Positions 27,230 through 53,391 are shown, counted from the first letter of the stretch. The stretch: DNA of 64,000 nt from Bradymonadales bacterium (GCA_041656175.1 JBBAEA010000002.1:3697-67696); one strand, 5' to 3'. Translations and numbers: made by a program. The notes: generated by a model not told the origin, from the sequence alone.

Positions 27230-27384
27230 GTAGGGGCTGGTTTCAAAGCTGCCCTTGTTTAAAACAACGAAAGTCAGGCTTGTTTTCAAAATAAAAGTCA
27301 ATAAAATCAATGCCCTACACACAAAAACGGGTTCCAAGGGCGCTAGCCTTTGGACGGGGTTTGGGGCGGTAGCCCCAATAATCA
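27230..27384 (+). repeat. Family-4 element, copy 4a: GC hairpin followed by a conserved 3' module
   Basis: GTAGGGGCTGGTTTCAAAGCTGCCCTTG...AATAAAATCAATGC...GGGTTCCAAGGGCGCTAGCCTTTGGACGGGGTTTGGGGCGGTAGCCCCAATAATCA. About 80% identical to copy 4b. Confidence 0.7.
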
Positions 27385-27458
27385 GAGTTTCCTTAGGGGA
27401 GCTAGCGTTGTACAATGATGAAAGAGTAAAGCCAAGAAAGAGTCATTAAGTTATTAGC

Positions 27459-29264
27459 ATGAAGAATGTTCATTTACGATCGCAGCGCGTCGCTCTGCTA
27501 AAACGAAAAAAAGAGCAGCGTCGCCTACTCACTTTGCAGCAAGATATCGCTTGGTCTAATGTCGAAAATGCGTCGGACTACGAGGACGCGCCTAACGATA
27601 GTTACGTTTTGCTTGAGCGACTCAGTGCCGAAAAATTTAAAGTTTTACGCCTTGCTAAACCTGGTAGTGTCTTACACGAAGTGTACGCTATAGCCGAGAA
27701 GAACGCGTTAGATTTTTCTTTTCCCGAAAAAGTTGAAGACGAACTTGCGGCGATTTTATCGCAGCCAACGTCCTTCGATAGACTGAGCGATTACAGCCAC
27801 CTCCCCTTTGTGACAATAGACGGCGAAGGGACGATGGACTTGGATCAGGCTTTGTATGTGGAGCGGGCAAAGGATAGTGACTATAAAATCGAGAACGATT
27901 GTGTTTACGTCGTGTGGTATGCCATCGCGGATCCATCGCATTTTATTCGTTATGGCTCCGCGCTGTATGAAGAAGCACTGCAACGCGGTGCAAGCATATA
28001 TTTCGCAGGTTTTAGCGCGCCAATGCTTCCAAGGGCGCTATCTACGGGTTTGATTTCGCTTAATGAAGGCGTCGATAGGCGCGCGCTACTCTTTATTATG
28101 CAGATCAATGAAGAGGGAAAATGCATAAAAACAGAATTGCTTCGCTCTAAAATTCGTAGTGTCGCTAAATTATCGAACGAAGAAGTCTCGCAATACTACA
28201 AATCTCCGCAGAATCATCGTTTAGCAAAACAGAGCTTTACGCCCAGTTTACTAGCGTTTAAAGAGGTAGCGCTCTTGCGGGTTAAAGAGGCAAGAACGCG
28301 TAACGTCGTGCACTTTAACCGCGTTAGCCTAGATGTTTCTCTGGATGTTGACCGTGATCGCTTCGTTTTAGGTTTTGATGAGCGTGATGAAGTATCATTA
28401 TATAATGAGCAACTTTCGCTGCTCTGCAACATGGAAGGCGCAAAGTTTCTCCTCCAACAACAATCTCGCGATCCCGACATACTCGCCATCTTCAGGAACC
28501 ACGAAGCGCCGAGTCAAGAGAGTTTGCTTGAATTAGAGCAGAGCATTGCGGCGCTTTGCGACGTTCACCAGCTTAGCGACGTTTGGCGCTGGGAACGCAC
28601 GAAGCAAAGCTTGTCCGATTACCTCGATGCACTGCCTAATTCCACCACTAAACATGAGCGCTACTATCGTTTGCGCCAAGCCATTGAGCGACAAATTCTG
28701 ATGATGCAGCGCCGTAGCGTGTTTTCGCCTGCTGCTGGCCTGCATTCTGCGCTGGGTGTAAATCCTTATGCCAGATTTTCGGCGCCTATGCGCGAGATCG
28801 TGGGTATTTTCACGCACAGAGAGGCGATAGAAGGGCTACATATTAGTCCGTATGGGCTTAGCATCGAAGAAAATTCAAAGCTAAGGACGCGTGTTATCGA
28901 AGCTGCAAACCGTGCCAAGGACAAGCAAAGTCGCATATCTAAGGCCATCGATAGCGCGGCGATCGCGCGTGCGATTAGCCGCGACTACAAGATCCCAAAA
29001 GCGCAGCGCCCCGTTCGCGTGGGCACGATTATGGGAATGAAGTCAAGCGCGCTTTACGTCCGGCTAGACTCCCCCCCGATTGAGCTTAAAGTCTACATTA
29101 AAGACATCATCGAAGAGCAGAAACAAAATTATATACTCAACGAGGCTAAAACTGTGCTACAGAGCGAGGATGGGCGCGTTCGCTACGTTGTTGGCCAATC
29201 CATTGGGCTACGCGTTCATAGCTATAACGCCAAGAAAAACAAGTGGTCGGTGCTTCCCGCGTAA
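27459..29264 (+). CDS. rnb: RNB-domain 3'-5' exoribonuclease (RNase II/R family)
   Basis: 601 aa. PFVTIDGEGTMDLDQALYVE matches the RNB active-site region (TIDP.DA.DFDDA type). Confidence 0.7.
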   Translation: MKNVHLRSQRVALLKRKKEQRRLLTLQQDIAWSNVENASDYEDAPNDSYVLLERLSAEKFKVLRLAKPGSVLHEVYAIAEKNALDFSFPEKVEDELAAILSQPTSFDRLSDYSHLPFVTIDGEGTMDLDQALYVERAKDSDYKIENDCVYVVWYAIADPSHFIRYGSALYEEALQRGASIYFAGFSAPMLPRALSTGLISLNEGVDRRALLFIMQINEEGKCIKTELLRSKIRSVAKLSNEEVSQYYKSPQNHRLAKQSFTPSLLAFKEVALLRVKEARTRNVVHFNRVSLDVSLDVDRDRFVLGFDERDEVSLYNEQLSLLCNMEGAKFLLQQQSRDPDILAIFRNHEAPSQESLLELEQSIAALCDVHQLSDVWRWERTKQSLSDYLDALPNSTTKHERYYRLRQAIERQILMMQRRSVFSPAAGLHSALGVNPYARFSAPMREIVGIFTHREAIEGLHISPYGLSIEENSKLRTRVIEAANRAKDKQSRISKAIDSAAIARAISRDYKIPKAQRPVRVGTIMGMKSSALYVRLDSPPIELKVYIKDIIEEQKQNYILNEAKTVLQSEDGRVRYVVGQSIGLRVHSYNAKKNKWSVLPA

Positions 29265-29367
29265 GCGTCACAATAGCCAAGTTCCAGCGCAATGCCTGCT
29301 TTGGCCGTGCAAAATATAGTATGGCTGCTTCTACGCGTTTTTGGCTTAAAAAAGTAACTGGCCCGTT

Positions 29368-30795
29368 TTAGGAAAGCAATCGGTGTCCCATCTCGAAGAT
29401 GGGGCCACCACCAAAAATGAGCAAACAGTCATTAGCTTGGAGAATAGCCGCGAGGTGCTCTTCGAGTGCGCGCATGCTCGGAAAAGCATAAGCGTCGCGA
29501 CCAAGCGCTTGAATTTTAAGGGCGAGCGCATCGGAGCTGATGCCCTCGACGTGGGCTTCACCAGCGGGGTCAAGCGGGGCGAGTGCGATATGATCGGCGA
29601 GCGCGAGACTTTGGGCGAGTTCATGCCAGTGGTGGGTGCAAAGACTGTAGCGGTAGGGCTGAAATACAGCGATGACGCGTTGTTCGTACTGTTTTTGCCA
29701 AAGTATGTCGTTTTTGATGGACGTGGGGTGGCTAGCGTAGTCGGTGACCAAGGAGATTTGCCGTGCGTCGTTGCGGCTGTGTTGGCAGCGGTCGATGAGG
29801 CCGGGGTAGTGGGCAAGTGCGCTAGTGATGTGTTGGGGGGCGATACCGAGGAGCTTGGCTAAGCTCGCCGCGGCGAAAAGATTGTAAGCATTGGAGAGGC
29901 CGCCAAGGGCGGGTCGGATAGGGATTTGCGCGTCGCGGGCTTGTAGCCGAAAGTCAATGAGCCCGCTGGGTTTTAGCTCTTTGTGGCTAGCAGTGAAATC
30001 CCAGTCGATAGGCTCAGTGGATCCTTTATGAGACCAAATGGCTAAGTAGAGATGGGGGGATTTGGGGATTTGTTTAAGCAGATCTGCGGCGCCAACCCCG
30101 TCATATTGAAATAATATTCGAGTTCCGTGCGCAAGACAGTTTTTTATGAGTTCTGCGAAACTATCCACGATTTTTTGGAGGCTGCCATAAACGTTGAGAT
30201 GATCGGCTTCGATGTTGTTGATGAGTAGGTAGCTGGGGCGATGCAACTCGTGGGTTCTGTCGGATTCGTCAACTTCGACAATGAGGTATTCGGCGTTTTG
30301 TACGTAGCGTGCAGCTCTGGGTTCGCCCTTGATAGGAGCGCCTAAGATGTAGGAAGTACGTAGCTTTGCGCTTTGGCATATGGCGAGTATTGCGCCCGCG
30401 GTGGTGCCCTTACCGTGGGTTCCGCAAACGGCGATGGAGCAGGGGTGGGCTTGAGTAATTTTGGCTAGAAAGTGTCCGCGTTTGATGGCGATTCCGCGTC
30501 TTTGTGCTTCGGCGCGTTCGGGGTTTTGCACAGGGATGGCGCTGGAATAGATCACACAGTCGGCGTCTCCCAAGTTCTCGGCCACTTGCGTTGTGTAGAC
30601 GCGGGCGCCTGCTTCTCGAAGCTCTGCAAGCGCTTCGCCATCGCGGCAGTCGCTTCCGCGTACGTCGTAGCCCGCCTCTAACATGTAGCGCGCTAGGCTC
30701 GACATCCCAGCGCCAGCGATACCTATAAAATGAAGGCGCTGTGGAATATCGCTACTGATATTACGGTTTTCTTGCATCTTCTCGCAATTCCTCAA
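29368..30795 (-). CDS. murC: Mur ligase, UDP-N-acetylmuramate--L-alanine ligase (MurC/Mpl family)
   Basis: 475 aa. HFIGIAGAGMSSLARYMLEAGYDVRGSD N-terminal Rossmann. GTHGKGTT P-loop. Start overlaps the 3' end of the upstream gene; an internal Met at 30777 is possible. Confidence 0.7.
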   Translation of the reverse strand: MRNCEKMQENRNISSDIPQRLHFIGIAGAGMSSLARYMLEAGYDVRGSDCRDGEALAELREAGARVYTTQVAENLGDADCVIYSSAIPVQNPERAEAQRRGIAIKRGHFLAKITQAHPCSIAVCGTHGKGTTAGAILAICQSAKLRTSYILGAPIKGEPRAARYVQNAEYLIVEVDESDRTHELHRPSYLLINNIEADHLNVYGSLQKIVDSFAELIKNCLAHGTRILFQYDGVGAADLLKQIPKSPHLYLAIWSHKGSTEPIDWDFTASHKELKPSGLIDFRLQARDAQIPIRPALGGLSNAYNLFAAASLAKLLGIAPQHITSALAHYPGLIDRCQHSRNDARQISLVTDYASHPTSIKNDILWQKQYEQRVIAVFQPYRYSLCTHHWHELAQSLALADHIALAPLDPAGEAHVEGISSDALALKIQALGRDAYAFPSMRALEEHLAAILQANDCLLIFGGGPIFEMGHRLLS

Positions 30796-32338
30796 GTTTA
30801 AATCGCTCCACCTTCCGGATCAGGTTACGTCGGCTAATGCCCAGCTCGACTGCTGTTTTGGTTTTGTTCCAATGGTTGCGCTCTAAAGAATTGAAAATCA
30901 TGGTCTTTTCAATGTTTTCGAGGGTGTCGGGCATGTTGACTTCGTGGTCCATATTTCGTAGCTGCTCAGAAACCATGTCTTGAGCGATCGCGGTGCTCTC
31001 TCGCATACTATAAGGTCTCGCTATACGCGGACTAACAACGCTAAGGGGAATTTCGCTATCGATGGGCGACAAAACCACTATGCGTTCAACTTCGTTTTCG
31101 AGCTCTCGAACGTTACCAGGCCAATCGTATTGTACAAGGGCACGCATCGCTTCTTTTGAAATTTTCTTTGGCTTGTAGCCGTTTTCGTGGCATTTTTTCT
31201 CAATAAAATGCTGTATTAACGCAACAATGTCGTCGCGGCGCTCTGCTAGCGATGGCACACGCAGCGTAATAACATTTATCCTATAATAAAGGTCGCGCCT
31301 GAAACTGCCGTTTTCGACCATTTCATCGAGGTTCTTGTTGGTAGCCGCGATAATCCGCACATCCACTCGTCTTGTCACGGAATCGCCAACGGGCACGAAG
31401 GTTCCCTCTTGCAAAACACGCAGTAACTTCACCTGCAAAGCCGCCGACATATCGCCTATTTCGTCCAAAAAGAAGCTTCCCTTATCGGCGACCTCAAATA
31501 GCCCGGGCTTATCGATGTAGGCGCCAGTGAAGGCGCCGCGTTTGTGGCCAAATAGCTCTGAATCGAGTAGCGAATCGTTGAGTGCCGAGCAGTTTTGTAT
31601 AACAAAGGGCGCGTTTGCTCGCGGGCCATTATAGTGGATAGCGCGCGCGACGAGTTCCTTGCCCACGCCCGGGGGACCCAAAATTAAGACCGACGACTCG
31701 CTTTGGACGACTTTATCGAGCGTTTTGAACAATTGTTTTATGGGGGCACTGCCACCGATGATGTGAGAGTAATCGTATTTTGTTTCGGGTTTTTCTATTT
31801 CGGGAGCAGGTTTTTCGCCTAAATGCTGTGCCGCGCTTTGTGCGATTTGTGCCAATAATTCTCCAGCGATTTGGGCTTCGCGGGGCTGTAAACGTACAGT
31901 TTCACGAAATCCATGAGAAACCAGCGTTCTGTTGAGCCCGAGCTCTTTGCCTCGCTCAAAAACGCAGCTTTCTTCCTCGATTCCCGCATTATGCGATAGG
32001 AAACCAGAGGCAAAAATCGCGCCCACGACTTCTTTGCCGACGATGACGGGTGCGGCGAGCCCGCGCAGACCAGCGTGACACTCCAAAAACACAAAAGCTG
32101 CTGCCTCCTTGCTCAAGTCCTCGAACCACTCCGCGTAACTCAGCGCGCACGAACGCGAGTCGCTACGGCTCAAAAACGCATCGCACAACGGCTTATCAAC
32201 CGCTTGCTGCTCGCCTAAATACGTCACCAAACCACGCGGCCCCAAAATCCCCACCCACACGTTGAGTTGTTTTCGTAAAATTTCGGCCAAACGTTCTACC
32301 GTTGGCAAATTCGCTATTTCGTACCAATTAATCATCAA
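30761..32338 (-). CDS. Sigma-54-dependent transcriptional activator (sensor domain, AAA+, HTH)
   Basis: 525 aa. GPPGVGKE Walker A. GAFTGA sigma-54 contact motif. DWPGNVRELEN. C-terminal Fis-type HTH. Confidence 0.85.
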   Translation of the reverse strand: MMINWYEIANLPTVERLAEILRKQLNVWVGILGPRGLVTYLGEQQAVDKPLCDAFLSRSDSRSCALSYAEWFEDLSKEAAAFVFLECHAGLRGLAAPVIVGKEVVGAIFASGFLSHNAGIEEESCVFERGKELGLNRTLVSHGFRETVRLQPREAQIAGELLAQIAQSAAQHLGEKPAPEIEKPETKYDYSHIIGGSAPIKQLFKTLDKVVQSESSVLILGPPGVGKELVARAIHYNGPRANAPFVIQNCSALNDSLLDSELFGHKRGAFTGAYIDKPGLFEVADKGSFFLDEIGDMSAALQVKLLRVLQEGTFVPVGDSVTRRVDVRIIAATNKNLDEMVENGSFRRDLYYRINVITLRVPSLAERRDDIVALIQHFIEKKCHENGYKPKKISKEAMRALVQYDWPGNVRELENEVERIVVLSPIDSEIPLSVVSPRIARPYSMRESTAIAQDMVSEQLRNMDHEVNMPDTLENIEKTMIFNSLERNHWNKTKTAVELGISRRNLIRKVERFKLEELREDARKP

Positions 32339-32442
32339 AGTGTCTGCTAAATGGGCATAAACGAGTGAAATTATCTATAAATATAAATTTTGTTCGGTTG
32401 TTGCTTTAATAGTACGCCGACTGTTAAAGAGAATTTCCTTTT

Positions 32443-32596
32443 TTGTGGGCGGGGGAAGTGTCCCCCCTCGCCAAAGCCTCCTCACAAAATACAGCAGCGA
32501 GCGCTTTATAAAATGCGGTGTTTTAGCTATTCGCTAAACCACCGCATTTTATGCGTTCGCTGTGCCTTTTCTTCGGGGGTCTTTGGCTCCCCCCTC
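32443..32596 (+). repeat. Family-1 structured element, copy 1f (degenerate)
   Basis: TTTTGTGGGCGGGGGAAGTGTCCCCCCTCGCC...GGGGGTCTTTGGCTCCCCCCTC. Internal palindrome AAAATGCGGTG...CACCGCATTTT. Confidence 0.6.
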
Positions 32597-32772
32597 TAAA
32601 TTTTCGGTATGGCCACAACAAGTTTCACCGCGATGGGCGTCTTGCGCAAGTTTGGCAAAGCGCTCTTGCTGAGCACTGGCTATGCTAACATAACAACCGC
32701 GTGATTGCATGTGGATTCTAGGAGTGCGCTTATATGCGCGAAGGACTCAGCAAGGACAGCCGAGTATTCGAA

Positions 32773-32860
32773 AAATCAATAAAATCAAGGCACTATACAG
32801 AAAATAGCGTTTAAAGACGACAGCCCTTAGCTGGGCGTGGTGCAGCGCCCCAATAAATTA
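32773..32860 (+). repeat. Family-4 element, 3' module only (copy 4d)
   Basis: AATAAAATCAAGGCA...CAGCCCTTAGCTGGGCGTGGTGCAGCGCCCCAATAAAT. Confidence 0.5.
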
Positions 32861-33003
32861 GAGCTTCCTTTGCCTATTGAGGATTTGCGCTTGTCGATAT
32901 TTTTTCTGCGGCGCTTTACAAACTGTGATTATTGTAAAAACGTCCAAAAACTATGTATAGCTGTTGTTACCGCGTGTTTGCGGTTGCTTACCCGGAGTTT
33001 TGA

Positions 33004-34017
33004 ATGCCAGAGAAATACTACCAACTTCCCTACGACTACGAGCCTTTGCTTGATTTACGCCAAACGCAGGTTGCCATAAAATTTGTCAAAGATGCTTTTG
33101 AGCGAGAGTTGGCTCAAGCGCTCAATTTGAGTCGTGTCACGGCGCCGTTATTCGTGACGCCATCGAGCGGCTTAAACGATGAACTCAGCGGCGTGGAGCG
33201 ACCTGTAAGCTTTGCAGCCGCATCGTGTAGTGAAGAACTAGAAATAGTTCATTCATTAGCGAAGTGGAAGCGCATGGCGCTTGCGCGATACGGCTTTACA
33301 GCGGGGGAGGGTTTGTATACGGATATGAACGCGATACGTCGCGATGAATATTGTGATAGCCTGCACTCGATCTACGTCGATCAATGGGATTGGGAGCGGG
33401 TGATGCTCGAGGATGAACGCAATTTTGCCTACCTCCTCGATACGGTTGAGCGCATTTACGCGGCTATCAAGTCGATAGAGTGGTTAGTGCGTAGCCGCTT
33501 TCCAGTGATTAAACCGAGCTTACCCGATAATATATTTTTTATTACTTCGCAGGATCTCCTCAATCGTTACCCCGATAAGACGCCTAAGCAGCGCGAAGCG
33601 ACAATTGCCGAGACTTACGGCGCGGTATTTATCATTGGGATTGGGGGGAAGCTGAGTAACAATGAGCCCCACGACTTGCGCGCCCCAGACTATGACGATT
33701 GGACCTTAAACGGTGATATTATTCTATGGAACGATGTCTTGAATTGTGCGTTCGAACTAAGTAGTATGGGCATACGTGTAGATCCACCCGCTCTGCGTAG
33801 GCAGTTAGATCTTGTCAATGGTAAGAGCCGTGAGAATCTACCCTTTCATAAGTCTTTGCTTCAAGGGGAGCTGCCCTTAACCATCGGTGGTGGTATTGGG
33901 CAGTCGCGGCTTTGTATGCAATTATTAAAGAAGGCCCATATCGGCGAGGTGCAAGTGAGCCATTGGCCAAAACGTGTTTTGGAAGAGTGCCAGAGTTATG
34001 GCATTGAGCTACTATAG
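33004..34017 (+). CDS. asnA: Aspartate--ammonia ligase (asparagine synthetase A)
   Basis: 337 aa. Class-II aaRS-like AsnA fold: ..SIYVDQWDWERV.., ..LTIGGGIGQSRLCM... Confidence 0.85.
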   Translation: MPEKYYQLPYDYEPLLDLRQTQVAIKFVKDAFERELAQALNLSRVTAPLFVTPSSGLNDELSGVERPVSFAAASCSEELEIVHSLAKWKRMALARYGFTAGEGLYTDMNAIRRDEYCDSLHSIYVDQWDWERVMLEDERNFAYLLDTVERIYAAIKSIEWLVRSRFPVIKPSLPDNIFFITSQDLLNRYPDKTPKQREATIAETYGAVFIIGIGGKLSNNEPHDLRAPDYDDWTLNGDIILWNDVLNCAFELSSMGIRVDPPALRRQLDLVNGKSRENLPFHKSLLQGELPLTIGGGIGQSRLCMQLLKKAHIGEVQVSHWPKRVLEECQSYGIELL

Positions 34018-34097
34018 TTTTGGTAGCATTTGAGAATCTAGCGATCGTTGTTTTTTGACACGCTGAGATCAGAATGGAGTAAACTGAGGAGAATTTT

Positions 34098-34739
34098 ATG
34101 GGAAAACGATTATTTATCCTTTTTGTAGCATCACTACTCGTTTTTGCAGGCTTAGGCCTCGCCCATGCGCCAGAGGCGAAAGCCGACACGAGTAAGACAG
34201 GCTTCGATTTGCTGCTCGGCATTGGTATGCAGTTTTGTACAGACGATGATGATAAGTGTAATACGAGCGAGAGCTTAAGCGCTGTGGGAGGACTTAGCGC
34301 TGGCTACACCTTCGAGTTGCACCCCATGTTTGCCATTGGGCCGTTTTTTGACCTTGATATGGGCGGCCTAGATGGCAAAGGCGTGGACAGATCCTTTACG
34401 ATGCAGGCCAATCTTATGCTAAAAGCTTTCGTTCGTCCCACGTATTTCGACTTTTGGCTGGGGCTAGGCGTGGGCTTTGCGCATTATCAACAAACCGTTG
34501 AGTTTTTAAACAGCGAAGTTACGGCCAAATGGAATGGTGGTTCGCTAAAAGTTAGCATCGGTGCAACGTATTTTTTACCAATGATGAGCAATATTGGTGT
34601 TGGCATTGACTATGCGTATATTCACAACTACAGCGGGAAGGAGTCTGGAGATTGGGATGGTTATACCATAGAAAGCAACAAGAAGGTCGACTACATTGGA
34701 ATTTCGCAGTTTAAGTTCCACGTGCGATTGAACTTTTAA
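34098..34739 (+). CDS. Small outer-membrane beta-barrel protein (OmpW/OmpA-barrel-like)
   Basis: 213 aa. Signal peptide. Alternating amphipathic strands. C-terminal ...FKFHVRLNF. Confidence 0.5.
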   Translation: MGKRLFILFVASLLVFAGLGLAHAPEAKADTSKTGFDLLLGIGMQFCTDDDDKCNTSESLSAVGGLSAGYTFELHPMFAIGPFFDLDMGGLDGKGVDRSFTMQANLMLKAFVRPTYFDFWLGLGVGFAHYQQTVEFLNSEVTAKWNGGSLKVSIGATYFLPMMSNIGVGIDYAYIHNYSGKESGDWDGYTIESNKKVDYIGISQFKFHVRLNF

Positions 34740-34839
34740 GTGAAGCATTTTGGCGTTATGGGGTGTTGTGCTGAGATGGGGACTTTTTGTTTTCTGAACA
34801 ATATCCGATAATTTGTGTTGTGATTTTGGCGGGGGCAGC

Positions 34840-34968
34840 TTTGAAAGCTGCCCCTTTCTTTATTAACGCCAAAAATTAGACGGGGCGTCGCGGGGTGTCC
34901 CCGCGGAGGGGGTAGTGGCAAACCCGCGCACAGCGCGGGGTTGACACGTAGGGGGAAACTTCCCCCAC
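34840..34968 (+). repeat. Composite fragment: family-4 hairpin (GGGGGCAGCTTTGAAAGCTGCCCC) followed by a miniature family-1-like terminus
   Basis: GGGGGTAGTGGCAAACCCGCGCACAGCGCGGGG...CGTAGGGGGAAACTTCCCCCAC resembles reverse-orientation family-1 ends. Confidence 0.5.
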
Positions 34969-35206
34969 CAAAGAAAAAGACAGCTATATCGAATCAATCA
35001 GCGTATGCCCAGGGCTTGGATGCCGCCATTTTTTAGGGCTATCATGCGCAGTATGGCTAGGCACGGGCTTGCATATTTTTGGCGGATGCTGTTGTTGAGT
35101 GACGCAATAGTTGAAAGAACGATAAATTTCATGATTTGGCATCTTTTATTCTTGTAATTTGCTGCTACTATAAAGCGTGGGGGTGGAAGAATTTGGTAGA
35201 GAGCAA

Positions 35207-36883: not shown

Positions 36884-36928
36884 TACGTTGATGGGCAATT
36901 TTGTACTATTTCGTCGTAAACAGTACTT

Positions 36929-37110
36929 AAGGACGCTCTGATCAACACAAAAACCGTAGGGGCAGGTTTCAAACCTTCCCTTGCTTAAAGCAAGGAAAAT
37001 CAGGCGAACGTTTAAAATAAAGCCAATAAAATCAAGGCAGTATGCAAACAAAGGGTTCTAAGGTCGCTAGCCCTTAGCGGGGTTTGGGGCGGAGCCCCAA
37101 AAATAAATCA
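36929..37110 (+). repeat. Family-4 element, copy 4b, including the upstream TTAAGGAnnCTCTGA motif
   Basis: TTAAGGACGCTCTGATCAACAC..GTAGGGGCAGGTTTCAAACCTTCCCTTG...GGGTTCTAAGGTCGCTAGCCCTTAGCGGGGTTTGGGGCGGAGCCCCAAAAATAAATCA. Confidence 0.7.
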
Positions 37111-37127
37111 GAACTTTCCTCAAAAAC

Positions 37128-38795
37128 ATGCTAAAATTTCTAGCTTGCTATTTTTTGTCGCAAATGAGAAAATACCATCAAGCTTGTAGCTGGGTTAGGC
37201 GAGCATTTGCTTGTGGGTGCATGAGCTGGTTCTTACTTGGCACGACTACGCTAACGCTGAGCGCTTGTAAAAGAGATGTTTTTATAGGCGATAGCACGAC
37301 ACAGGATGGAAAGTCTATGCAGAGATTGCGAAAAGCAGCTTTGGCTGGCACTTGGTATACTGCTAATCCCAAATCCTTGCGAAAATCTATTGTTCAATAT
37401 TTAGAAGAAGCGCAGCCCAAGCGCATTGGCTTTGAGCAGAACCCCTTGGCTCTTGTTATACCGCATGCTGGGCATCAGTGGTCTGGCTCTACTGCAGCCA
37501 GTGCCTACGTCAATATTCCCAAAGCCAACGAAATTCGCCGCGTTTTTATATTGTCTCCAAACCATCGCATGCCAGTTCGTGGAGTGGTGACGGATCGTGT
37601 CGACGCGTTCTCGACACCGCTTGGGGATGTGCCTGTAGACAGTGCGCTCATCAATGATTGGTTGGAGCGCGACTTGATAGGCGAGAGCTCGCAAGCGCAC
37701 CGTCAAGAGCACGCTATCGAAATCCAGTTGCCCTTTCTACAAACGATATTGGAAGACTTCAGCATTGTTCCTCTCATTGTGGGACAGCTCGATAAAGATG
37801 AATTATTAAAATTTAGCAGGGCATTAAAAGAGAGTCTAAAACCCAACGATTTACTCGTCATATCGAGTGATTTTCTGCACTACGGCGAGGGATTTGGATA
37901 CGTTCCTTTTGGAGCACCAGTCATCGAAAATATTCGCCAATACGATATGGCCACTTTTGAGGCGATAAGCGCGTTAGATGTTCATGTTTTTGAAGAGCAT
38001 ATCTTAAAAGAGCCGCACTGCGCATGCGGTTCGAACTCGCTGTGGGTGCTTAGCGCAGTTTTTCAAGACAGCAAGAGCGTAGTTGTTAAGCTCGACTACA
38101 ACACATCCGCCATGATCTCGGGCGAAGACGACATGTCGGTCTCCTACATGGCACTAGCCGTGGTTCCCAAAACTTCTATTAAGGCTGATATTCAGTCTTC
38201 AACGGAGCATAATAAAATGATAAGCCAGAATCCATTGCAGCCAAATGAAACCATTCAAGCACTAAAACTGGCGCGCATAGCCTTGAACGCAGGGGTGGCT
38301 GCGGGTGAGAGCACAGATTTTGACCTCGACGCCATAAAGGCAGCTGAATTAGACTTAAGCCCTGTCTTTAAGGAAGAATACGGCGTCTTTGTTACACTTA
38401 AGCAAAACGACGAGCTACGTGGTTGCATTGGCAATATCTTGCCCTACGCCAATTTGGCGCGTTCTATCTGGGGAAGGGCGCAGGATGCTGCGTTGGGCGA
38501 CCCTCGTTTTGAAGATGTGCAGCCCGAGGAATTGGCGCATATATCTCTAGAGATATCAGTGCTAACGCGTCCGCAAAAAGTCACTAGCTTCGAAGATATT
38601 GTTATTGGGAAGCACGGCATTATTCTAAAAAAGCAAGGCAGAACCTCGGTCTTTTTACCGCAAGTAGCGCCTGAGCAAGGTTGGACGTTGGAGCAAACCC
38701 TAGGTGCTTTAGCGCAAAAAGCGGGCTTCTCTTCTAACGCGTGGCGAAGTGATACGCAGCTCGAAGTCTTTGAAGCGCAAGTATTCTCGGAGTAA
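37128..38795 (+). CDS. Fusion of a MEMO1-family domain (AmmeMemoRadiSam system protein B) with a C-terminal AMMECR1 domain (protein A)
   Basis: 555 aa. LALVIPHAGHQWSGSTAASAY..ILSPNH is Memo-like. The C-terminal GVFVTLKQNDELRGCIGNILP is the AMMECR1 signature. A likely signal or lipoprotein start sits at the internal Met near 37221. Confidence 0.75.
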   Translation: MLKFLACYFLSQMRKYHQACSWVRRAFACGCMSWFLLGTTTLTLSACKRDVFIGDSTTQDGKSMQRLRKAALAGTWYTANPKSLRKSIVQYLEEAQPKRIGFEQNPLALVIPHAGHQWSGSTAASAYVNIPKANEIRRVFILSPNHRMPVRGVVTDRVDAFSTPLGDVPVDSALINDWLERDLIGESSQAHRQEHAIEIQLPFLQTILEDFSIVPLIVGQLDKDELLKFSRALKESLKPNDLLVISSDFLHYGEGFGYVPFGAPVIENIRQYDMATFEAISALDVHVFEEHILKEPHCACGSNSLWVLSAVFQDSKSVVVKLDYNTSAMISGEDDMSVSYMALAVVPKTSIKADIQSSTEHNKMISQNPLQPNETIQALKLARIALNAGVAAGESTDFDLDAIKAAELDLSPVFKEEYGVFVTLKQNDELRGCIGNILPYANLARSIWGRAQDAALGDPRFEDVQPEELAHISLEISVLTRPQKVTSFEDIVIGKHGIILKKQGRTSVFLPQVAPEQGWTLEQTLGALAQKAGFSSNAWRSDTQLEVFEAQVFSE

Positions 38796-38824
38796 GTTGC
38801 GCGCGAACGCGTTCATTGATGGCA

Positions 38825-39221
38825 CTTTCGTGTCTTTAAATTTTTAACCACGAAAGCCACGAAAACACACGAAAAGTTTTTTATTCTTAGATGTCCAGCT
38901 TGATATGTAATAATCTTTCGTGCCTTTTGTGTCTTTAAATTTTTAACCACGAAAGCCACGAAAACACACGAAAAGTTTTTTATTCTTAGATGTCCAGCTT
39001 GATATGTAATAATCTTTCGTGTATTTCGTGGCAAAAAAAAAGCTTTCGAGCCTTTCGTGTATTTCGTGGCAAAAAAAAGCTTTCGAGCCTTTCGTGTATT
39101 TCGTGGTAAAAAAGCTTTCGAGCCTTTTGTGTATTTCGTGGCAAAAAAAGCTTTCGCGCCTTTCGTGTATTTCGTGGTAAAAAAGCTTTCGAGCCTTTTG
39201 TGTATTTCGTGGCAAAAAAAG
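38825..39221 (-). repeat. Tandem array B: 2 units of about 100 bp plus 6 units of about 37 bp. Reverse-complement, diverged relative of array A
   Basis: Units at 38835 and 38934 are near-identical. Then six copies of CGTGTATTTCGTGG(C/T)AAAAAAAGCTTTCGAGCCTTT. About 85% identical to the array-A unit on the opposite strand. Confidence 0.85.
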
Positions 39222-39224
39222 GCC

Positions 39225-40787
39225 TTATTGATTTAAAGAGTGCAACGCTTTTTTTGCCATATCGACGATTTCGATCGACTGTGATTCTTTGCTGTCTTCA
39301 TCGATGGCGGAAACTTCCAAAATTCCGTTGACATCGATTTTGAAGCTCACTTTGATTTTCGGGATCATACGTGGGGCTGGGCGGATGCCGCTCAACTCAA
39401 AGGCTCCCAAAAACGTGTTCTCCTCGCAGCGCTTACCCTCGCCTTGGTAAACCGATATGACGACGCTCGATTGATTGTCGCGGTTTGTGGTAAAATGGCG
39501 ATGCACGCGGTGAGGAACTTTAGTGTTTTTGGGGATTAGCGGTACAAAGACCGAGTTTGCCGCCTCGATCCCAAGGGTAAGCGGTGTGATATCGAGCAGC
39601 AGAAGATCGCTTTGTGGCGTAGCCAAGCTCATCGCCTGTATCGCAGCGCCAATACCGACCACCTCGTCTGGGTTCATGCTCGTGTTCAGCGGCTTTGAGA
39701 GCCACTTTTGCACCATTTCGCGAATGAGCGGCATACGCGTCATTCCGCCGACCATAATGAGCTCATCCAGATCCTTGATCCGTAGCCCCGCGTCGCGCAA
39801 CACGCGCTCGCAGATCCTTAAAGAGCGCTCCACGAGCGGCAAGCACAAGTTCTCGAAATGCGAGCGGTAAACGACTTCCGAAATTCCAAGATTCTCGTTG
39901 ATATTTGGCGATATTCGCGGCAGCTTGATTTCAGTGTGTTCGTTTTGAGATAGCTGAATTTTGGCGTATTCCGCCGCATCGACTATACGCTGCATCGCCA
40001 TCTGATCGAGCGAAAGATCGATGCCGTGCTCTGATTTGAAGTTCTTGATTAACCAATCGGCTAGTATTTGGTTAAAGTCGTTGCCACCAAGAAAAGTGTC
40101 GCCGCCAGTGCCAATGACGTTGAACAGCCCCTCGCTGATTTCGAGCACCGAAACGTCGAAGGTACCACCGCCAAAATCGTAAACCGCCACGCGCTGATTT
40201 TTCTCTGAGCCAAAGCCGTAAGCAAGCGCCGCGGCAGTGGGTTCATTGATGAGGCGCAGAACCTCTAAACCTGCGAGTTCCGCAGCCTCTTTGGTGGCGG
40301 TTCGCTGGACGTTATCAAAGTGCGCTGGTACCGAAATAACGGCTTGCTTAACCTCGCAGCCAAGGGCATACTCGGACATTCTTTTGACTTTTTTAAGTAC
40401 AGCGGCGCTTACTTCCACAGGGCTTATACGTTGCCCACCGATTTCACAAAGAGGCATGCCATCGGGATCCGCGACGACGCTGTAGCTGATATATGGCAAG
40501 GTTTTTTGTACGTTGTCGGAGGAGAATTTTTGCCCAAGTAAACGCTTGGACGAGTGTACCGAAAGGTAGGGTTGCGTCGCCATCTGCGCTTTTGCCAAGT
40601 GCCCCACGAAAAACCGCCCTTCGCGATTCAAGGACATCACCGAGGGCATGGTGGAGTGACCTGTCTCATCGAGTATTATTTGTACCGCGCCGCCCTTTAC
40701 GACGGCAGCGCAAGTGTTTGATGTACCTAAATCAATACCGAGTACGGGCATGCAACTCCTGTTTACTAACAAGGGGCTAAAATTCAA
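39225..40787 (-). CDS. Hsp70-family ATPase with shortened substrate-binding domain (DnaK/HscC-like paralogue)
   Basis: 520 aa. [31 protein letters not shown]. No long C-terminal lid or EEVD region. The start could be the internal Met at 40751. Confidence 0.75.
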
Positions 40788-40796
40788 AAACTAAAG

Positions 40797-41032
40797 CCTT
40801 TGCAAGGCTAGTAATAATGAATTTTATTTTATAAATTCTATACAGTTTAAAACAAAATGAGACATTTTGTAGAGAAGCATAAGTTAATAGTGCTAATCAT
40901 ATAAGACAGGTAGAAGATAGAATGACATTTTATTTGAAAATTGCTTAAAAGAGTGTTTTTTTTGGGGAGGGGGGGCGAGGGGAAGCTTTTTGCTTTTGCA
41001 AAAAGAAAAAAGCTTCCCCCCGCGCAAAGCTC
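40797..41032 (+). repeat. Family-3 TIR element, copy 3b
   Basis: CCTTTGCAAGGCTAG...ACAAAATGAGACATTTTGTAGAGAA...GCTTAAAAGAGTG...GGAAGCTTTTTGCTTTTGCAAAAAGAAAAAAGCTTCC...GCGCAAAGCTC. Confidence 0.7.
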
Positions 41033-41092
41033 AAAAACTGGCAATTTCCCAAAAAACGACTGTGCGCCTTAAAACTCTACAGCGCAAAACGC

Positions 41093-42526
41093 CTATTTTT
41101 TAAAGAGTTTGTCAAAAAGACCGCCCTTCTTAGGCGTCGGATTTTCTACGGGAATATTGCCCAAAGAGCGCACATTCTGCCGTTTTGGGAGCTCTGCATC
41201 GTTTAATTTGATATCATCCAAAAACGAGCGACGCTGCGTTTCTGGCGCATCCTTCGTTGACAAGGCGGCTTGAAGTTGAATTTTGGGCGACTCGCGACTT
41301 TCAGCGCTGTCTTTCGCCTGCGTTCCCTCGCCTGCCAGCAACGCGGCATCAGGCTCTGCCTCTTCTACTTCACGCTCTTTCGGCTCAGCGCTTACGCTGT
41401 CCTCGATTTTTCCCAATAGTTCCGAGATGCTTTCGCGCGTTTCAGTTTGCTCGGGTGTCGGCTGCACAGAATCTTGCTCTTGCTTATCCTCATCGCGTTG
41501 CATCTGCTGCAGGAGTTCTTGCATTTGTTGAGAGCTGTCATCCTCTCCACCATGCGAGGGGTCCACCATTCCAAGTAGCGTTGGTTCTTGAGCTATATCG
41601 AGTTCCGCCGAATCGCTAAGCCCTAACAAGGAAACACCCCTCACTTCCTCCGAAACACGCTTCACGCTGAGCAACGACTCGCTAGTTTCGTCCTCCCCTA
41701 GGAGTTGGTCACTGTTGGGGTCAATATTCGGCGCTGCCAACACAGCCGCCGCGGGTTCGTCATCATCGTTTATCACCGCACTCTCAATATCCGAGCGCAA
41801 TTCCTCGTTCGCACTCACAAGTGCCGCCAAATAGTCTTTGCTCGCGTTTGCCTCAAGATCCCGCGGTTCTTCATAAACCCCGCTTACCTCAAAGCCAGCC
41901 CCCACGCCAAGATTCTCGCCGCTGGAGCGCGTCGCCGATAGCTCTGGCGCAGCCAGCCCCACACCAGCGAACAAATCATCTAGACCCGCGTCAATATCGG
42001 TCTCACCGAAGAGATCAAAACCCAAAGAATCGCCAGCCTTCGCCTCTACAATGTGCAACTTAGGTTTATCCTGCGTCGCTTCAGAAGCCGCAGTATCAGT
42101 CGCTTGGGAGGAGGATTGCGCCGTTTCAGTCGCCTCGGCAGCCTCCATCGCTGGCGGTGTCGAGTCGCGCTCTGTTAAACCGCCGCGCTGCTTATGCTCC
42201 TGGATTTCCTTGGCCTTTAAGACCGCATCGACCACTTCCTTAAAGGGCCGATTAATCCGATTAAGCGAGAGTAGCATCCCCGACATCTGCGAAGACGGCC
42301 CCCCCACAAACGGAATCTCCTTGCGCACGACGCCCTCGCCGATATACACCTGCGAATCATCGGCGAGTCGGAACTCAAAATGCACCTCGGTTCCAATGGG
42401 TCGCGTCGAACGCGTACGGATAAACAGCCCAGCACGACTAATCAGCGGCGCAATTCCCTCAATAAACGCCTCCTGCGTCGTATACTTAAGTGTCGCCTTA
42501 ATCATCGCAATACGGTTCGCATCCAC
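41093..42526 (-). CDS. PilZ-like domain protein with long acidic low-complexity C-terminal region
   Basis: 477 aa. N-terminal ISRAGLFIRT...LADDSQVYIGEGVV resembles myxobacterial PilZ/TIGR02266-type domains. The rest is a D/E/S/A-rich disordered region. Confidence 0.45.
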   Translation of the reverse strand: MDANRIAMIKATLKYTTQEAFIEGIAPLISRAGLFIRTRSTRPIGTEVHFEFRLADDSQVYIGEGVVRKEIPFVGGPSSQMSGMLLSLNRINRPFKEVVDAVLKAKEIQEHKQRGGLTERDSTPPAMEAAEATETAQSSSQATDTAASEATQDKPKLHIVEAKAGDSLGFDLFGETDIDAGLDDLFAGVGLAAPELSATRSSGENLGVGAGFEVSGVYEEPRDLEANASKDYLAALVSANEELRSDIESAVINDDDEPAAAVLAAPNIDPNSDQLLGEDETSESLLSVKRVSEEVRGVSLLGLSDSAELDIAQEPTLLGMVDPSHGGEDDSSQQMQELLQQMQRDEDKQEQDSVQPTPEQTETRESISELLGKIEDSVSAEPKEREVEEAEPDAALLAGEGTQAKDSAESRESPKIQLQAALSTKDAPETQRRSFLDDIKLNDAELPKRQNVRSLGNIPVENPTPKKGGLFDKLFKK

Positions 42527-42635
42527 TGTTCACCTCACAAAATAGCATTGCCCCCGCGTCCACGCATATTTATAGCACATTCCTTTGCTCAAGCAATATT
42601 ATGTAGCTTTTGGCATTTAAAAGCCTTTTCTTTTT

Positions 42636-42781
42636 TTGTGGGGGAGCGCCCCCTACGCGCGGGCTTCCTCGTAAATATCACAATTCGCGCCTTATTTTGT
42701 GCGCTGTATCGGCTATTCGCCAACCCAGCGCACAAAATGCGCTCATGGTGCTATTTCCTCGGCGATCCCGCGCTACCCCCC
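42636..42781 (+). repeat. Family-1 structured element, copy 1g
   Basis: TTTGTGGGGGAGCGCCCCCTACGCGCGGGCTTCCTCG...GGCGATCCCGCGCTACCCCCC. Followed by TTAAGGAAACTCTGATATATG and an inverted family-4 terminal fragment at 42803-42835. Confidence 0.8.
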
Positions 42782-42902
42782 TGCGCCCTTAAGGAAACTC
42801 TGATATATGGGGGCTACCGCCCAAAACCCCGCTTCGTTTTGTGGGGCGCTGCTAAGGCTATCGCCCTTAGAACCCTTTTTTTGTGTAGCGTCTTGAATTT
42901 CT

Positions 42903-45041
42903 CTAGCTCATCAAAACGCGAACAGAATCGGCTTCCACGGTTATTCTTAGCCCTTTCTCGCTGTGCGCTTCATCGATGTCGACGAAGTCCTGTGGAGAGT
43001 CGAGTGCGGTGTTAATGATGCTCTTCCACGTCCTGCGAGGAATCTCGAAAGACAGTGGCTCTCGCCACGCATTCATGGCGATATAGAAACGATGCTCTCG
43101 CGGGCCAGCCAATAGTTCGCATGCTAGGCTGTGGGAGTGCGCGCTCCAATCGGGTTTGCCCATCGAAACGCCATGCCAAATAATACCAGCTTGTGTTCTC
43201 AGAGCCGTTTGCGTAGCGACAAAGGGATCGGCGAATTCAGTACGCTTTAGCGCTGGATGTTTTGCGCGAAGCTTGATAAGCAGTCGCATAAAACGCAGCA
43301 TTTCTTCGCCATTTTCGTTGTATGTCCAGTCTATCCAGCCTACAGGGTTATCTTGGCAGAACGCGTTGTTGTTGCCGCCTTGACTTCGCCAATACTCATC
43401 ACCGCCCAAGATCATCGGCGTTCCCCGTGAGATGAAAAGCGTGGTTAACAAATTTTTTGCGCGCTGCTTTCGGCGGCGCTCTAGCGCTTCATCCCCTGGC
43501 CCCTCAACGCCCATATTATCGCTAAAGTTTTGCTCCGAGCCATCACGATTTTGCTCTCCATTACGTTCGTTGTGCTTTTTATTGTAGGAGCAAAGGTCTC
43601 GCAGGGTAAAACCGTCGTGAGCCGTTACAAAGTTTACACTTTGGGATGCATTTTGTTTTGTGCCAAATAAGTCACGGCTACCACCAATACGTAGAGCCAA
43701 GTCCTTTACCGTGTCGTTATCGGAACGCCAAAATCGGCGCAAATCATCGCGAAAGCGCCCATTCCACTCTGCCCAGTCCACTGGGAAACGCCCGACTTTG
43801 TACATGCCAGCGGCGTCCCAAGATTCGGCAATGAGCTTGCAGCCTCGTAAGATCGGGTCGGCTGCAATATCGTTGAGTAAACCAAGTTGAGGATCCGAAA
43901 TCCACTCCCCTTCGTGGGAGCGCCCCAAAATAGTAGCTAGGTCAAAACGAAAACCGTCTACTCGCATCTCGACTAGCCAAAATCGTAGGCAATCAATGAT
44001 AAGCTGTTTCATAACGGGATGGTTACAATTCATGGTATTGCCGCAACCCGTATAGTTCTCGTATCGCTTGTTCTTATCAAGCATGTAATAAACGGAGTTA
44101 TCTAGCCCGCGGTACGCGATGGTAGGACCGTGTTCGTTTCCTTCTCCCGAATGATTAAAGACGACGTCAAGAATGACTTCGATTTTTGCTTCGTGAAAAC
44201 GCTGTACCATTTCGCGAAATTCACGCGGACCCTGTGTAGGATCGGGATCTGACACGTAACTGTGGTGCGGGGCAAAAAAGCCGATAGTCGCATAGCCCCA
44301 GTAGTTGCGGTTGCGCTCACCAGTGACAGGGTCGACCAAATTTGGCGGTTCCCATTCGTTAAACTGTGCAACAGGCAAAAGTTCGATGGCTGTAATGCCA
44401 AGCGACTTTAAATGCGGGATTCGATCGCAAAGCCCCGCAAATGTTCCAGGCAACTTTGATAACGACGAAGGATGTGCCGTCATTCCCTTCACATGGCACT
44501 CGTAAATAACCGAGTCCTCCAAGCTATGTTTAGGTCTAGCGGTTTCCCCCCATGCAAACGAAAGCGGTTTCAAGGCTATGGACTTTGCGGTAACGCCCGC
44601 GCTCCAATACGGTGAAAATGAGCGTTCTCGCAGGGAGGAATCGCGATCGTAGCCATAAATCGCGTCCGAAAATACATTGTAGCGTCCGACGTATGCGCGA
44701 GAATAAGGGTCGGCCAACAATTTATTGACGTTAAATCGATGTCCGTGCCGTGGCATATACGGCCCGTCTAGACGAATGCCGTATAACTGACCCGCCCGAA
44801 CGCCTTCGACAAAAATATGCCAAATATCTCCAGTTCTATGAAGATCTGAGTCTAGGACATGCGTCCTATATGGCATCTCATCTTCGGCGTTGCGAAACAA
44901 GTCTATGTATGCAGCCGTTGCATTACGCGAGTAAAACGCAAAGTTAACTCCCTCATCGCTCACCGTTGCGCCGAAGGGTAAGGGGTGTCCTATCGATCTA
45001 TACATCGCGTGCTTTCCAAGTACGCCGGCTGCTAAAAGCAA
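42903..45041 (-). CDS. glgX: Glycogen debranching enzyme (isoamylase, GH13)
   Basis: 712 aa. N-terminal CBM48 region (GATVSDEGVNFAFYS). GH13 catalytic regions (GFRFDLA, ..VTAHDGFTLRD..). Confidence 0.85.
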   Translation of the reverse strand: MLLAAGVLGKHAMYRSIGHPLPFGATVSDEGVNFAFYSRNATAAYIDLFRNAEDEMPYRTHVLDSDLHRTGDIWHIFVEGVRAGQLYGIRLDGPYMPRHGHRFNVNKLLADPYSRAYVGRYNVFSDAIYGYDRDSSLRERSFSPYWSAGVTAKSIALKPLSFAWGETARPKHSLEDSVIYECHVKGMTAHPSSLSKLPGTFAGLCDRIPHLKSLGITAIELLPVAQFNEWEPPNLVDPVTGERNRNYWGYATIGFFAPHHSYVSDPDPTQGPREFREMVQRFHEAKIEVILDVVFNHSGEGNEHGPTIAYRGLDNSVYYMLDKNKRYENYTGCGNTMNCNHPVMKQLIIDCLRFWLVEMRVDGFRFDLATILGRSHEGEWISDPQLGLLNDIAADPILRGCKLIAESWDAAGMYKVGRFPVDWAEWNGRFRDDLRRFWRSDNDTVKDLALRIGGSRDLFGTKQNASQSVNFVTAHDGFTLRDLCSYNKKHNERNGEQNRDGSEQNFSDNMGVEGPGDEALERRRKQRAKNLLTTLFISRGTPMILGGDEYWRSQGGNNNAFCQDNPVGWIDWTYNENGEEMLRFMRLLIKLRAKHPALKRTEFADPFVATQTALRTQAGIIWHGVSMGKPDWSAHSHSLACELLAGPREHRFYIAMNAWREPLSFEIPRRTWKSIINTALDSPQDFVDIDEAHSEKGLRITVEADSVRVLMS

Positions 45042-45044
45042 AAG

Positions 45045-45117
45045 TGGCTAGGGACGGAATTGAACCGCCGACACGAGGATTTTCAGTCCTCTGCTCTACC
45101 TACTGAGCTACCTAGCC
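45045..45117 (-). tRNA. tRNA-Phe (anticodon GAA), copy 1
   Basis: Reverse complement reads GGCTAGG-TA-GCTCAGTAGGTAGAGC-A-GAGGA-CTGAAAA-TCCTC-GTGTC-GGCGG-TTCAATT-CCGTC-CCTAGCC-A. Confidence 0.85.
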
Positions 45118-45132
45118 CTAGGGCGAAACAAA

Positions 45133-45205
45133 TGGCTAGGGACGGAATTGAACCGCCGACACGAGGATTTTCAGTCCTCTGCTCTACCTACTGAGCTACC
45201 TAGCC
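45133..45205 (-). tRNA. tRNA-Phe (anticodon GAA), copy 2
   Basis: Identical 73-nt sequence 88 bp downstream of copy 1. Confidence 0.85.
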
Positions 45206-45351
45206 ACAAAACGCTCTCACAATAAAGAGCGCAGCCACTTACTACGCGAAGTCAGCACGCGTGTCAAGGAATTTCATTTCTCACTGAAAAGTATGAAGAA
45301 CTTATACCTAAGTCGTAAAATTATCCCGTATTTGGCTGTTCTTAAACGCTA

Positions 45352-45430
45352 TAAGGAGACTCTGATGATTGCAAAATTAGTAGGGGCAGGTTTCAAACCT
45401 GCCCTTGATTAAAACAACGAAAGTCAGCTG
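45352..45430 (+). repeat. Family-4 element, 5' part only (copy 4c). The hairpin likely serves as terminator for the ALDH gene
   Basis: ATAAGGAGACTCTGATGATTGCAAAATTAGTAGGGGCAGGTTTCAAACCTGCCCTTGATTAAAACAACGAAAGTCAG. Confidence 0.6.
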
Positions 45431-53388: not shown

Positions 53389-53391
53389 AAG

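Follow-up and report, generated by a model that had tools for sequence, protein, structure and literature searches.

REP (repetitive extragenic palindromic) sequences are GC-rich palindromes of 20-40 nt with a 5' GT[AG]G foot (PMC6006769, PMC3733652). The GTAG REP super-family was defined by Di Nocera et al. (2013), and its REPs are also found embedded in longer palindromes (PMC3733652). The REPs of TnpA_REP subclass 2.4, which corresponds to group 4 of the REP-associated tyrosine transposases (RAYTs), have a 'double foot' (5' GT[AG]G ... C[TC]AC 3') and three G-C pairs at the stem base, with a REP palindrome in frame within the transposase gene itself and a patchy taxonomic distribution (Quentin et al., 2018; PMC6006769). 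[quoted passage not shown] In Anabaena variabilis, GTAG-15 dimers lie within TATAGGA...TCCTATA palindromes, and 'TIRtrons' are another example of REPs within inverted-repeat elements (Di Nocera et al., 2013; PMC3733652). Here, we analysed an intergenic repeat family, designated family 4, in a 64-kb stretch of DNA from a Bradymonadales bacterium (GCA_041656175.1 JBBAEA010000002.1:3697-67696; hereafter the window), and concluded that it is most likely a MITE-type non-coding repeat with an embedded REP.

The element is strictly intergenic and multi-copy, with inverted repeats and TA at its borders. The 5' module, judged by its sequence, is a GTAG-footed REP of the RAYT/TnpA_REP tyrosine (HUH) transposase subclass 2.4, and the element as a whole is very probably non-autonomous. 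MITEs and GTAG REPs are already known kinds of repeat, and family 4 is a further example of fairly ordinary selfish intergenic DNA. What deserves attention is the composite MITE-plus-REP architecture, a RAYT pseudogene joined to a family-4 end, and an exact 29-mer common to more than 10 phyla. In the poorly studied lineage that carries the Bradymonadales label, this would be a new case of a RAYT-type REP serving as a module of an inverted-repeat, TA-bounded MITE.

Copies and anatomy of the family-4 element

Using a profile search (nhmmer), we located five copies of family 4 in the window (two full and three partial), a recurrence far above chance; one related variant is also present. The extents given by the search were 27195-27395, 32752-32870, 36928-37120, 42790-42900 (minus strand) and 45352-45430. 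The features are as follows:

27195-27395, plus strand: full copy A, 63 nt upstream of an RNB-domain gene
~27196-27209, plus strand: 5' inverted repeat of copy A, degenerate
27230-27257, plus strand: predicted REP hairpin of copy A, two mismatches, stem weakened
27334-27353 and 27361-27378, plus strand: internal stem-loops of copy A
27381-27395, plus strand: 3' inverted repeat of copy A, last bases TA
36928-37122, plus strand: full copy B, between a 568-aa gene and the Memo-AMMECR1 gene
36928-36942, plus strand: 5' inverted repeat of copy B, TAAGGACGCTCTGAT
36956-36983, plus strand: predicted REP hairpin of copy B, one mismatch
37079-37101, plus strand: 3' module of copy B
37107-37122, plus strand: 3' inverted repeat of copy B, ATCAGAACTTTCCTCA
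45352-45430, plus strand: 5' fragment C, which stops after ~20 nt of the interior
45352-45366, plus strand: 5' inverted repeat of fragment C
45380-45407, plus strand: hairpin of fragment C, perfect
32752-32870, plus strand: 3' fragment D, 133 nt upstream of asnA
42790-42900, minus strand: 3' fragment E, inverted
42790-42804: 3' inverted repeat of fragment E, reading TAAGGAAACTCTGAT on the plus strand
34795-34990, plus strand: related variant F, degenerate 5' inverted repeat (TTCTGAACAAT...)
60601-60628, no strand assigned: 3' and 5' inverted repeats back to back with one TA in common, CTCAGAGCATCCT-TA-GGGAAACTCTGAA

A first-pass annotation of this DNA had already described the repeat family, and the strings it quoted were recovered. 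The hairpin GTAGGGGCAGGTTTCAAACCTGCCCTTG, allowing up to three mismatches, occurs at 27230, 36956 and 45380, always on the plus strand, and dinucleotide shuffles expect 0 such matches; the 3' module GGGGTTTGGGGCGG(T/A)AGCCCCAA, for which shuffles likewise expect 0, occurs at 27356 and 37079 and, inverted, at 42808-42830. The two copies it had called full (at 27230 and 36929) are indeed full, but position 36929 marks the start of a terminal inverted repeat and the hairpin of that copy begins at 36956. Similarly, the hairpin-only copy placed at 45352 is a 5' fragment that does contain the hairpin, but 45352 is the start of its inverted repeat and the hairpin follows at 45380. A hairpin is also present where one had been placed at 34840, but it is a variant without the GTAG foot. 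The ...AAGGCA given for copy A is incorrect, and the actual sequence is AATAAAATCAATGCC.

The partial copies and the variant differ in what they retain. Fragment C lies 11 nt past the stop codon of a convergent aldehyde dehydrogenase gene. Fragment D retains the AATAAAATCAAGGC block of the interior, a pair of diverged stem-loops and, at 32857-32871, a 3' inverted repeat in degenerate form; the diverged 3' module at 32772-32856 (repeat families D18 and D19) is part of it and agrees with the 3'-module-only copy reported at 32773. Fragment E, whose inverted 3' module at 42808-42830 had been noticed as an inverted fragment at 42803, lies 2 nt after the isoamylase stop codon and adjoins a 'family-1' repeat (42631-42789). 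Variant F has a hairpin (GGGGGCAGCTTTGAAAGCTGCCCC, 34831-34855) that lacks the GTAG foot and has a T-tail, is terminator-like and follows an outer membrane protein (OMP) gene, and its interior module (34878-34975) differs from the family-4 interior. The junction at 60601-60628 forms a 28-nt palindrome adjoining a family-1 repeat. Pfam searches confirmed the RNB/RNase II-like, AsnA and Memo-AMMECR1 neighbours that the first-pass annotation had named, and proteins of identical sequence carry the NCBI label 'MAG: Bradymonadales bacterium'.

Copies were also found in a related organism. We scanned public metagenomes for the hairpin in its lineage-specific form and obtained 36 loci, ~15 of which came from metagenome Ga0265293 (loci from this and the other searches are numbered with the prefix L). 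The Ga0265293 loci contain true family-4 copies at 67-87% identity together with the other repeat families of the window, and no synteny with the window was seen. There are 5 copies in the 64 kb of the window and ~33 in ~170 kb of Ga0265293.

The terminal inverted repeats, which the earlier description had overlooked, define the element. In the aligned window copies, the 5' motif TTAAGGAnnCTCTGA returns at the 3' side as its reverse complement ATCAGAGnnTCCTTA. The ends are terminal inverted repeats of 14-15 nt (TAAGGAnnCTCTGAT ... ATCAGAGnnTCCTTA) with TA at the start and at the end, so that the boundary scheme can be given as TA-AGGAnnCTCTGAT ... ATCAGAGnnTCCT-TA (the core of the inverted repeat is also written TAAGGAAGCTCTGAT). 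The motif TTAAGGAnnCTCTGAT has 6 matches in the window at up to two mismatches, versus 0.28 expected. It had been reported to precede three copies, which is exact for B and C but only degenerate for A, and its inverted occurrences at 3' ends (27381-27396, 32857 and 42789-42804) had escaped notice.

A consensus was derived from alignments of 15 and then 25 copies, including those of the related organism. Its 5' part reads TA-AGGAnGCTCTGAT-CAA(TGTGAAAAT)TGCAAAAAcA followed by the hairpin GTAGGGGCAGGTTTCAAACCTGCCCTTG; the interior continues as ATTAAAACAACGAAAGTCAGGC...TTTTCAAAATAAAGTCAATAAAATCAATGC... and then CTAAGGGCGcTAGCCCTTAG; the 3' part is CGGGG-TTGGGGCGGTAGCCCCAA followed by AAATAA-ATCAGAGCTTCCT-TA. 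Elements with both inverted repeats measure 158-374 nt, and repeats paired at this distance were found eight times in the loci of the relative and once in the window (copy B). The inverted repeats pair in 78% of their cells in the 25-copy alignment (helix 2). TA is present at both termini in nearly all intact ends, and 49 inverted-repeat ends begin with TAA or TAG, versus at most 16 for any other trinucleotide. Tail-to-head junctions with a single common TA occur at 60601-60628 in the window and, in the same arrangement, at L158:11577-11604. Indels between copies are not multiples of three.

As a side feature, the repeat in the form TAAGGAGG/TAAGGAAG (at 36928-36935 and 45352-45359 in the window, and in related loci) resembles a Shine-Dalgarno (SD) sequence, the complement being anti-SD-like (CTCCTTA). 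The SD-like strand points inwards, without a conserved start codon after it.

With regard to overall plan, family 4 resembles RUP and the Correia/nemis elements of Neisseria: all are small and non-coding, have inverted repeats with 5'-TA-3' ends, occur in many intergenic copies, show internal deletions and could form a long stem-loop when transcribed. No sequence resemblance was noticed, the comparison being one of descriptions only. Unlike those families, whose interiors are AT-rich, family 4 has an interior of GC-rich stem-loops in which no promoter or integration host factor (IHF) motif was found, and it carries a RAYT-type REP that they do not. The A. variabilis elements share with family 4 a GTAG REP inside an enclosing inverted repeat with TA at both ends. 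However, their palindromes have REP dimers at the centre, whereas family 4 has a single REP near its 5' end plus ~120 nt of other modules, and its enclosing element also exists without the hairpin.

Identity of the hairpin

The window hairpin, GTAG-GGGCAGGTTTCAAACCTGCCC (27230, 36956 and 45380; core also written GTAGGGGCAGGTTTCAAACCTGCCC), combines a GTAG foot with a GC-rich palindrome, the base of whose stem consists of three G-C pairs. When one genome per species was scanned with the 25-mer GTAGGGGCNGGTTTCAAANCTNCCC, at least 118 loci in more than 10 phyla were obtained, with unrelated flanks and the palindrome alone in common. The taxa include Dehalococcoidia, Chloroflexia, Brocadia and other Planctomycetota, Bacteroidales, Nitrospirota, cyanobacteria, Acidobacteriota and Zoogloeaceae, among others. 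The cross-phylum consensus is a perfect 'double-foot' 29-mer, GTAGGGGCAGGTTTCAAACCTGCCCCTAC (...CCCCTAC), present in 60 of 132 among the matches listed. In some genomes the palindrome occurs as inverted doublets, as tandem arrays or within other inverted-repeat elements.

The link to RAYTs comes from coding sequences. The palindrome can be translated as V-G-A-G-F/L-K-P-A-P-T, and in a 204-aa open reading frame (ORF) at L066:4260-4874 it lies in frame between the HUH motif PDHFHAII and the Tyr motif QRNYYEHIIR. This ORF matches the NCBIfam model for REP-associated tyrosine transposases (NF047646, E=1e-18), and its protein has 2987 database relatives, mostly PF01797 members and many named 'REP element-mobilizing transposase RayT'. 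One or several inserts of the VGAG[LF]KPAPT type are found at the same place in essentially all of the best 120 of the 2987 relatives, a frequency to be read with the caveat that the search was seeded by shared words. The best match of the RAYT family profile in the PDB is E. coli TnpA_REP (4ER8), and the L066 protein as a single-sequence query gave no PDB match. RAYT group 4 of Bertels et al. 2017 is reportedly the same as subclass 2.4 of Quentin et al. 2018. Searches of the literature with the hairpin and its peptide translations as strings returned no papers, the phenomenon itself being described in the RAYT literature.

Two further loci place the hairpin next to RAYT remnants. It lies 54 nt upstream of a truncated RAYT at L082:881-1141. 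At L145:358-16 (on the minus strand of contig Ga0265293_10011766), 47 nt separate the 5' inverted repeat of family 4 from the hairpin, and the hairpin leads into the C-terminal half of a frameshifted RAYT (peptides ...SEIVLALKTFSAQRINEY... / WQRNYYEHIIRDE...). This arrangement may be the product of hairpin-mediated recombination or of a MITE insertion into a RAYT gene. A homologue search with the L145 fragment found no intact close one, and the closest sequences were at most 59% identical and mostly fragments. We also considered whether the family-4 interior is an internally deleted RAYT gene, and rejected this, as local alignment to the RAYT downstream of the hairpin was no better than with shuffled sequences.

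Compared with subclass 2.4 REPs, the family-4 hairpin has the same GTAG foot, GC-rich palindrome and three stem-base G-C pairs, and its palindrome likewise occurs in frame between the HUH and Tyr motifs of RAYT-like genes, with a patchy distribution among phyla. The hairpin differs in being single-footed (…CCCTTG instead of …CCCCTAC), in being degenerate in two of the three window copies, in forming no doublets and in being one module of a longer inverted-repeat element. Unlike the described system, no RAYT gene is present in the 64-kb window, and only a pseudogene fragment was found in the relative. The hairpin, which had been described as 'terminator-like', is by these features best classed as a single-foot, partly degenerate member of the GTAG REP class. 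The term is suitable for the T-tailed variant at 34831-34855, but the three GTAG hairpins have no T-tail and look like a REP palindrome. An exact 29-nt 'double-foot' REP common to more than 10 phyla and also present inside RAYT genes bears on how REPs and RAYTs spread, and on whether there is horizontal movement of group-4 RAYTs.

Related observations were made on other REP sequences. In many RAYT-like proteins (P0016, P0035, P0059, P0061, P0068 and others), the REP segment is expanded in tandem, such as KPAPTDTVHM x6 or VGAGS x n, which implies that the palindrome is unstable even within the transposase gene. In Brocadia and relatives (L010, L031, L057, L062, L081 and L106), the double-foot REP is central in another element of ~110 nt with inverted repeats AGTTTTTTGAAAAA...TTTTTCAAAAAACT; composites with a REP inside inverted repeats thus recur in unrelated phyla. 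The window also has a second class of GTAG-footed REP, GTAGGGGG(G)-loop-CCCCC(C), with 12 overlapping matches at eight distinct sites where shuffles expect 0, so that no fewer than two REP types appear to underlie the intergenic repeats of this lineage. The sites of this second class, mostly in 'family 1' repeats, are:

4187-4205, second-class REP
12344-12365, second-class REP
21055-21072, second-class REP
25882-25902, second-class REP
34948-34966, second-class REP
42640-42656, second-class REP
55278-55298, second-class REP
60659-60679, second-class REP

Mosaic interior, gene context and competing explanations

Modules are gained, lost and duplicated within the element. Of 25 aligned copies, 5 (such as L139:9733-9916 and L158:2995-3152) lack the hairpin or keep just half of it, and L151, L136, L143, L147 and L149 have it in tandem multiples. 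The 3' module is partly deleted in L131, L140 and L158. At L147:3009-3219 and L147:11964-12337 the interior has been swapped for other modules, and in the former the family-4 inverted repeats surround an interior equal to window positions 34878-34975. The mosaic distribution and modular recombination suggested by the first-pass annotation are thus borne out by the copies of the relative. A more precise formulation, that the hairpin indel is the exact palindrome between GTAG and CT(T/A)G, was dropped because the pairwise gaps are ambiguous and one hairpin-less copy keeps a half-hairpin-like stretch.

The gene context was examined for 38 copies with crude ORF calls of at least 100 aa. None of the 38 overlaps such an ORF. 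Stop codons directly adjoin many copies on one or both sides, and many copies lie between convergent genes; the frequent contact with TAA and TAG fits TA targeting, since both codons contain TA. Of the genes faced by the 3' end, 12 present their start and 9 their end (two-sided binomial p ~0.66); for the 5' (hairpin) end the counts are 6 starts and 15 ends (p ~0.08). The distance to the next gene start ranges from 7 to ~260 nt. Because orientation is not fixed, the placement upstream of plus-strand genes that had been reported for the window does not generalise.

Several searches addressed a role in RNA or transcription. Rfam 15 gave only tRNAs at the gathering score, and at E<=1 nothing overlapped any copy and two spurious sub-threshold matches were all that was added; an Rfam search had been proposed with the original small-RNA (sRNA) or promoter-proximal suggestion. 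No sigma-70-like promoter was found within any copy by consensus scan, and promoter-like and terminator-like sites between 26.5 and 46 kb are not commoner than in shuffles. After each of the three GTAG hairpins (27230, 36956 and 45380) there is TTG(N)TTAAA and no T-tail, and only 34831-34855 qualifies as an intrinsic terminator. Across 25 copies, the four helices proposed (the inverted-repeat stem, the hairpin and two 3' stem-loops) have 78.7% of their cells paired, versus 24-59% when slid; in the same copies covariation does not exceed that of shuffled controls, which reached the observed values in 199-432 of 500 cases. The palindromes are therefore real as sequence features, and no RNA-specific signal was detected in them. 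With no sign of either, family 4 appears to be neither an sRNA gene nor a promoter module, as had been suggested. Beside these searches, two near-identical tRNA-Phe(GAA) genes were observed in tandem on the minus strand at 45044-45206, and a sub-threshold Rfam YrlA match that extends over the two most likely arose as an artefact of this pair.

In the explanation that we consider likely, the whole element would spread, or would once have spread, by the action in trans of a TA-targeting cut-and-paste DDE transposase; such a mobilising enzyme is suggested by analogy with RUP and IS630-Spn1. The REP hairpin would behave as a unit of its own, which the element gains, loses and multiplies, either by RAYT action on single-stranded DNA or by replication slippage and recombination at the palindrome, and either route would lead to mosaicism. 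Effects on neighbouring genes, such as that of a 3' stem-loop on upstream transcripts, would be incidental, and the biology of these genes is probably unaffected.

A number of observations weigh against this explanation. No empty site was found, so that mobility and TA target duplication are presumptive, and the TA at the ends could be simply part of the inverted repeat. The window and ~230 kb of related sequence yielded neither a transposase with matching inverted repeats nor an intact RAYT. Correspondingly, there was no transposase domain among 20 window ORFs scanned with Pfam, no pair of inverted repeats more than 400 nt apart (the spacing of insertion sequences), no multi-copy ORF in the loci of the relative, and no gene family enriched beside the hairpin at the 118 genome loci listed, except for rare RAYT genes. 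Strains L001-L004 show no insertion polymorphism and have identical family-4 copies, a weak test as they are 99.6-100% identical. All window hairpins are single and on the plus strand, and none forms an inverted doublet (REPIN); such doublets were seen only in other organisms, for example in Zoogloeaceae loci L012, L040, L058, L071 and L119. REPIN doublets are usually presumed to be the mobilised unit. Moreover, two of the three window hairpins have stem-breaking mismatches and may be decaying relics, and a few compensatory changes in the 3' stem-loops (pairs 193/210 and 237/254) would also fit selection on RNA or DNA structure.

Indels among strains L001-L004 are confined to tandem repeats. 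Two TTTCGTG-rich arrays, 26071-26532 and 38825-39250, with units of 99 nt and 35-38 nt, are the sole indel sites between L001 and L002, and related arrays occur in the Ga0265293 loci.

A more specific scheme would make family 4 a true chimera, a TA-targeting MITE with a captured group-4 RAYT hairpin that is served by both DDE and HUH tyrosine transposases, with RAYT cutting at the GTAG hairpin shuffling modules between repeat families throughout the intergenic regions of the lineage. We consider it unlikely; if it were true, the L145 RAYT pseudogene fused to a family-4 5' end would be the footprint of such an event. It is similarly doubtful that the hairpin persists for the benefit of the host as a REP-type 3' end structure that protects or terminates upstream mRNAs. 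REPs are reported to be located mostly downstream of coding sequences and to work as RNA elements (PMC3733652), many family-4 copies begin a few nt past a stop codon, the 5' end tends to face gene ends (p ~0.08), and the variant hairpin at 34831-34855 carries a T-tail after the OMP gene. However, the orientation bias is not significant and is based on crude ORF calls, the canonical hairpins have no T-tails and two of three window stems are mismatched, and TA targeting would bring copies close to stop codons just as well.

Exaptation as a Correia-like cis-regulatory module, in which the 3' module or the outward inverted repeat would provide a promoter, a leader or a processing site, is rather improbable. 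Promoters and RNase III sites are known in Correia elements and other MITEs (PMC10969869), the 3' end faces a gene start in four of five window copies (RNB, asnA, Memo-AMMECR1 and a 477-aa gene), and the inverted repeats would pair as a 14-15-bp stem in read-through RNA. On the other hand, this tendency is lost in the larger census (12 starts versus 9 ends) with its variable spacing, no copy has a sigma-70-like site, and several lie between convergent genes.

There is an equally small chance that family 4 is immobile as a unit, its copies being intergenic patchworks produced by recombination, gene conversion and slippage of short palindromic modules, the 'inverted repeat' among them. The extreme mosaicism with unrelated interiors inside the same inverted repeats, the back-to-back junction, the variable number of hairpins, the missing transposase and the lack of insertion polymorphism among strains are all in line with it. 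However, two organisms have, at unrelated loci, full copies of 158-250 nt with both inverted repeats, a constant order of modules and TA ends, a recurrence that is hard to explain unless the whole unit has moved.

It is highly improbable that each full copy is a gene for a structured trans-acting sRNA: the full copies do fold better than shuffles (z = -2.9 and -2.6) and have three to four conserved stem-loops with a few pairs changed on both sides, but this stability is due to the inverted repeats and palindromes, covariation is at the level of shuffles, Rfam match, promoter and 3'-end terminator are all lacking, and the copies are truncated and mosaic with freely variable module content.

Annotation and other features of the window

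For the annotation of this metagenome-assembled genome and its relatives, the consequence is that family-4 elements should be masked as repeats, and calls of sRNA genes, promoters or terminators should not be made from them.

A further family of intergenic repeats, ~180-330 nt in length, is present at 15337-15573, 40797-41039 and 53067-53393; it has a long terminal GGGGGGAA...TTCCCCCC palindrome, and a copy with 89% identity was found in L147. Tandem repeats also occur within ORFs, at 15765-16110 and 52342-52626, with periods of 72 and 57 nt in ORFs of 692 and 512 aa, respectively. As both periods are multiples of three, these ORFs probably encode repeat-containing proteins. Finally, a serpin gene at 19672-20806 seems to be divided between two ORFs (140 and 240 aa) that overlap, which could reflect a frameshift, a pseudogene or a sequencing error.

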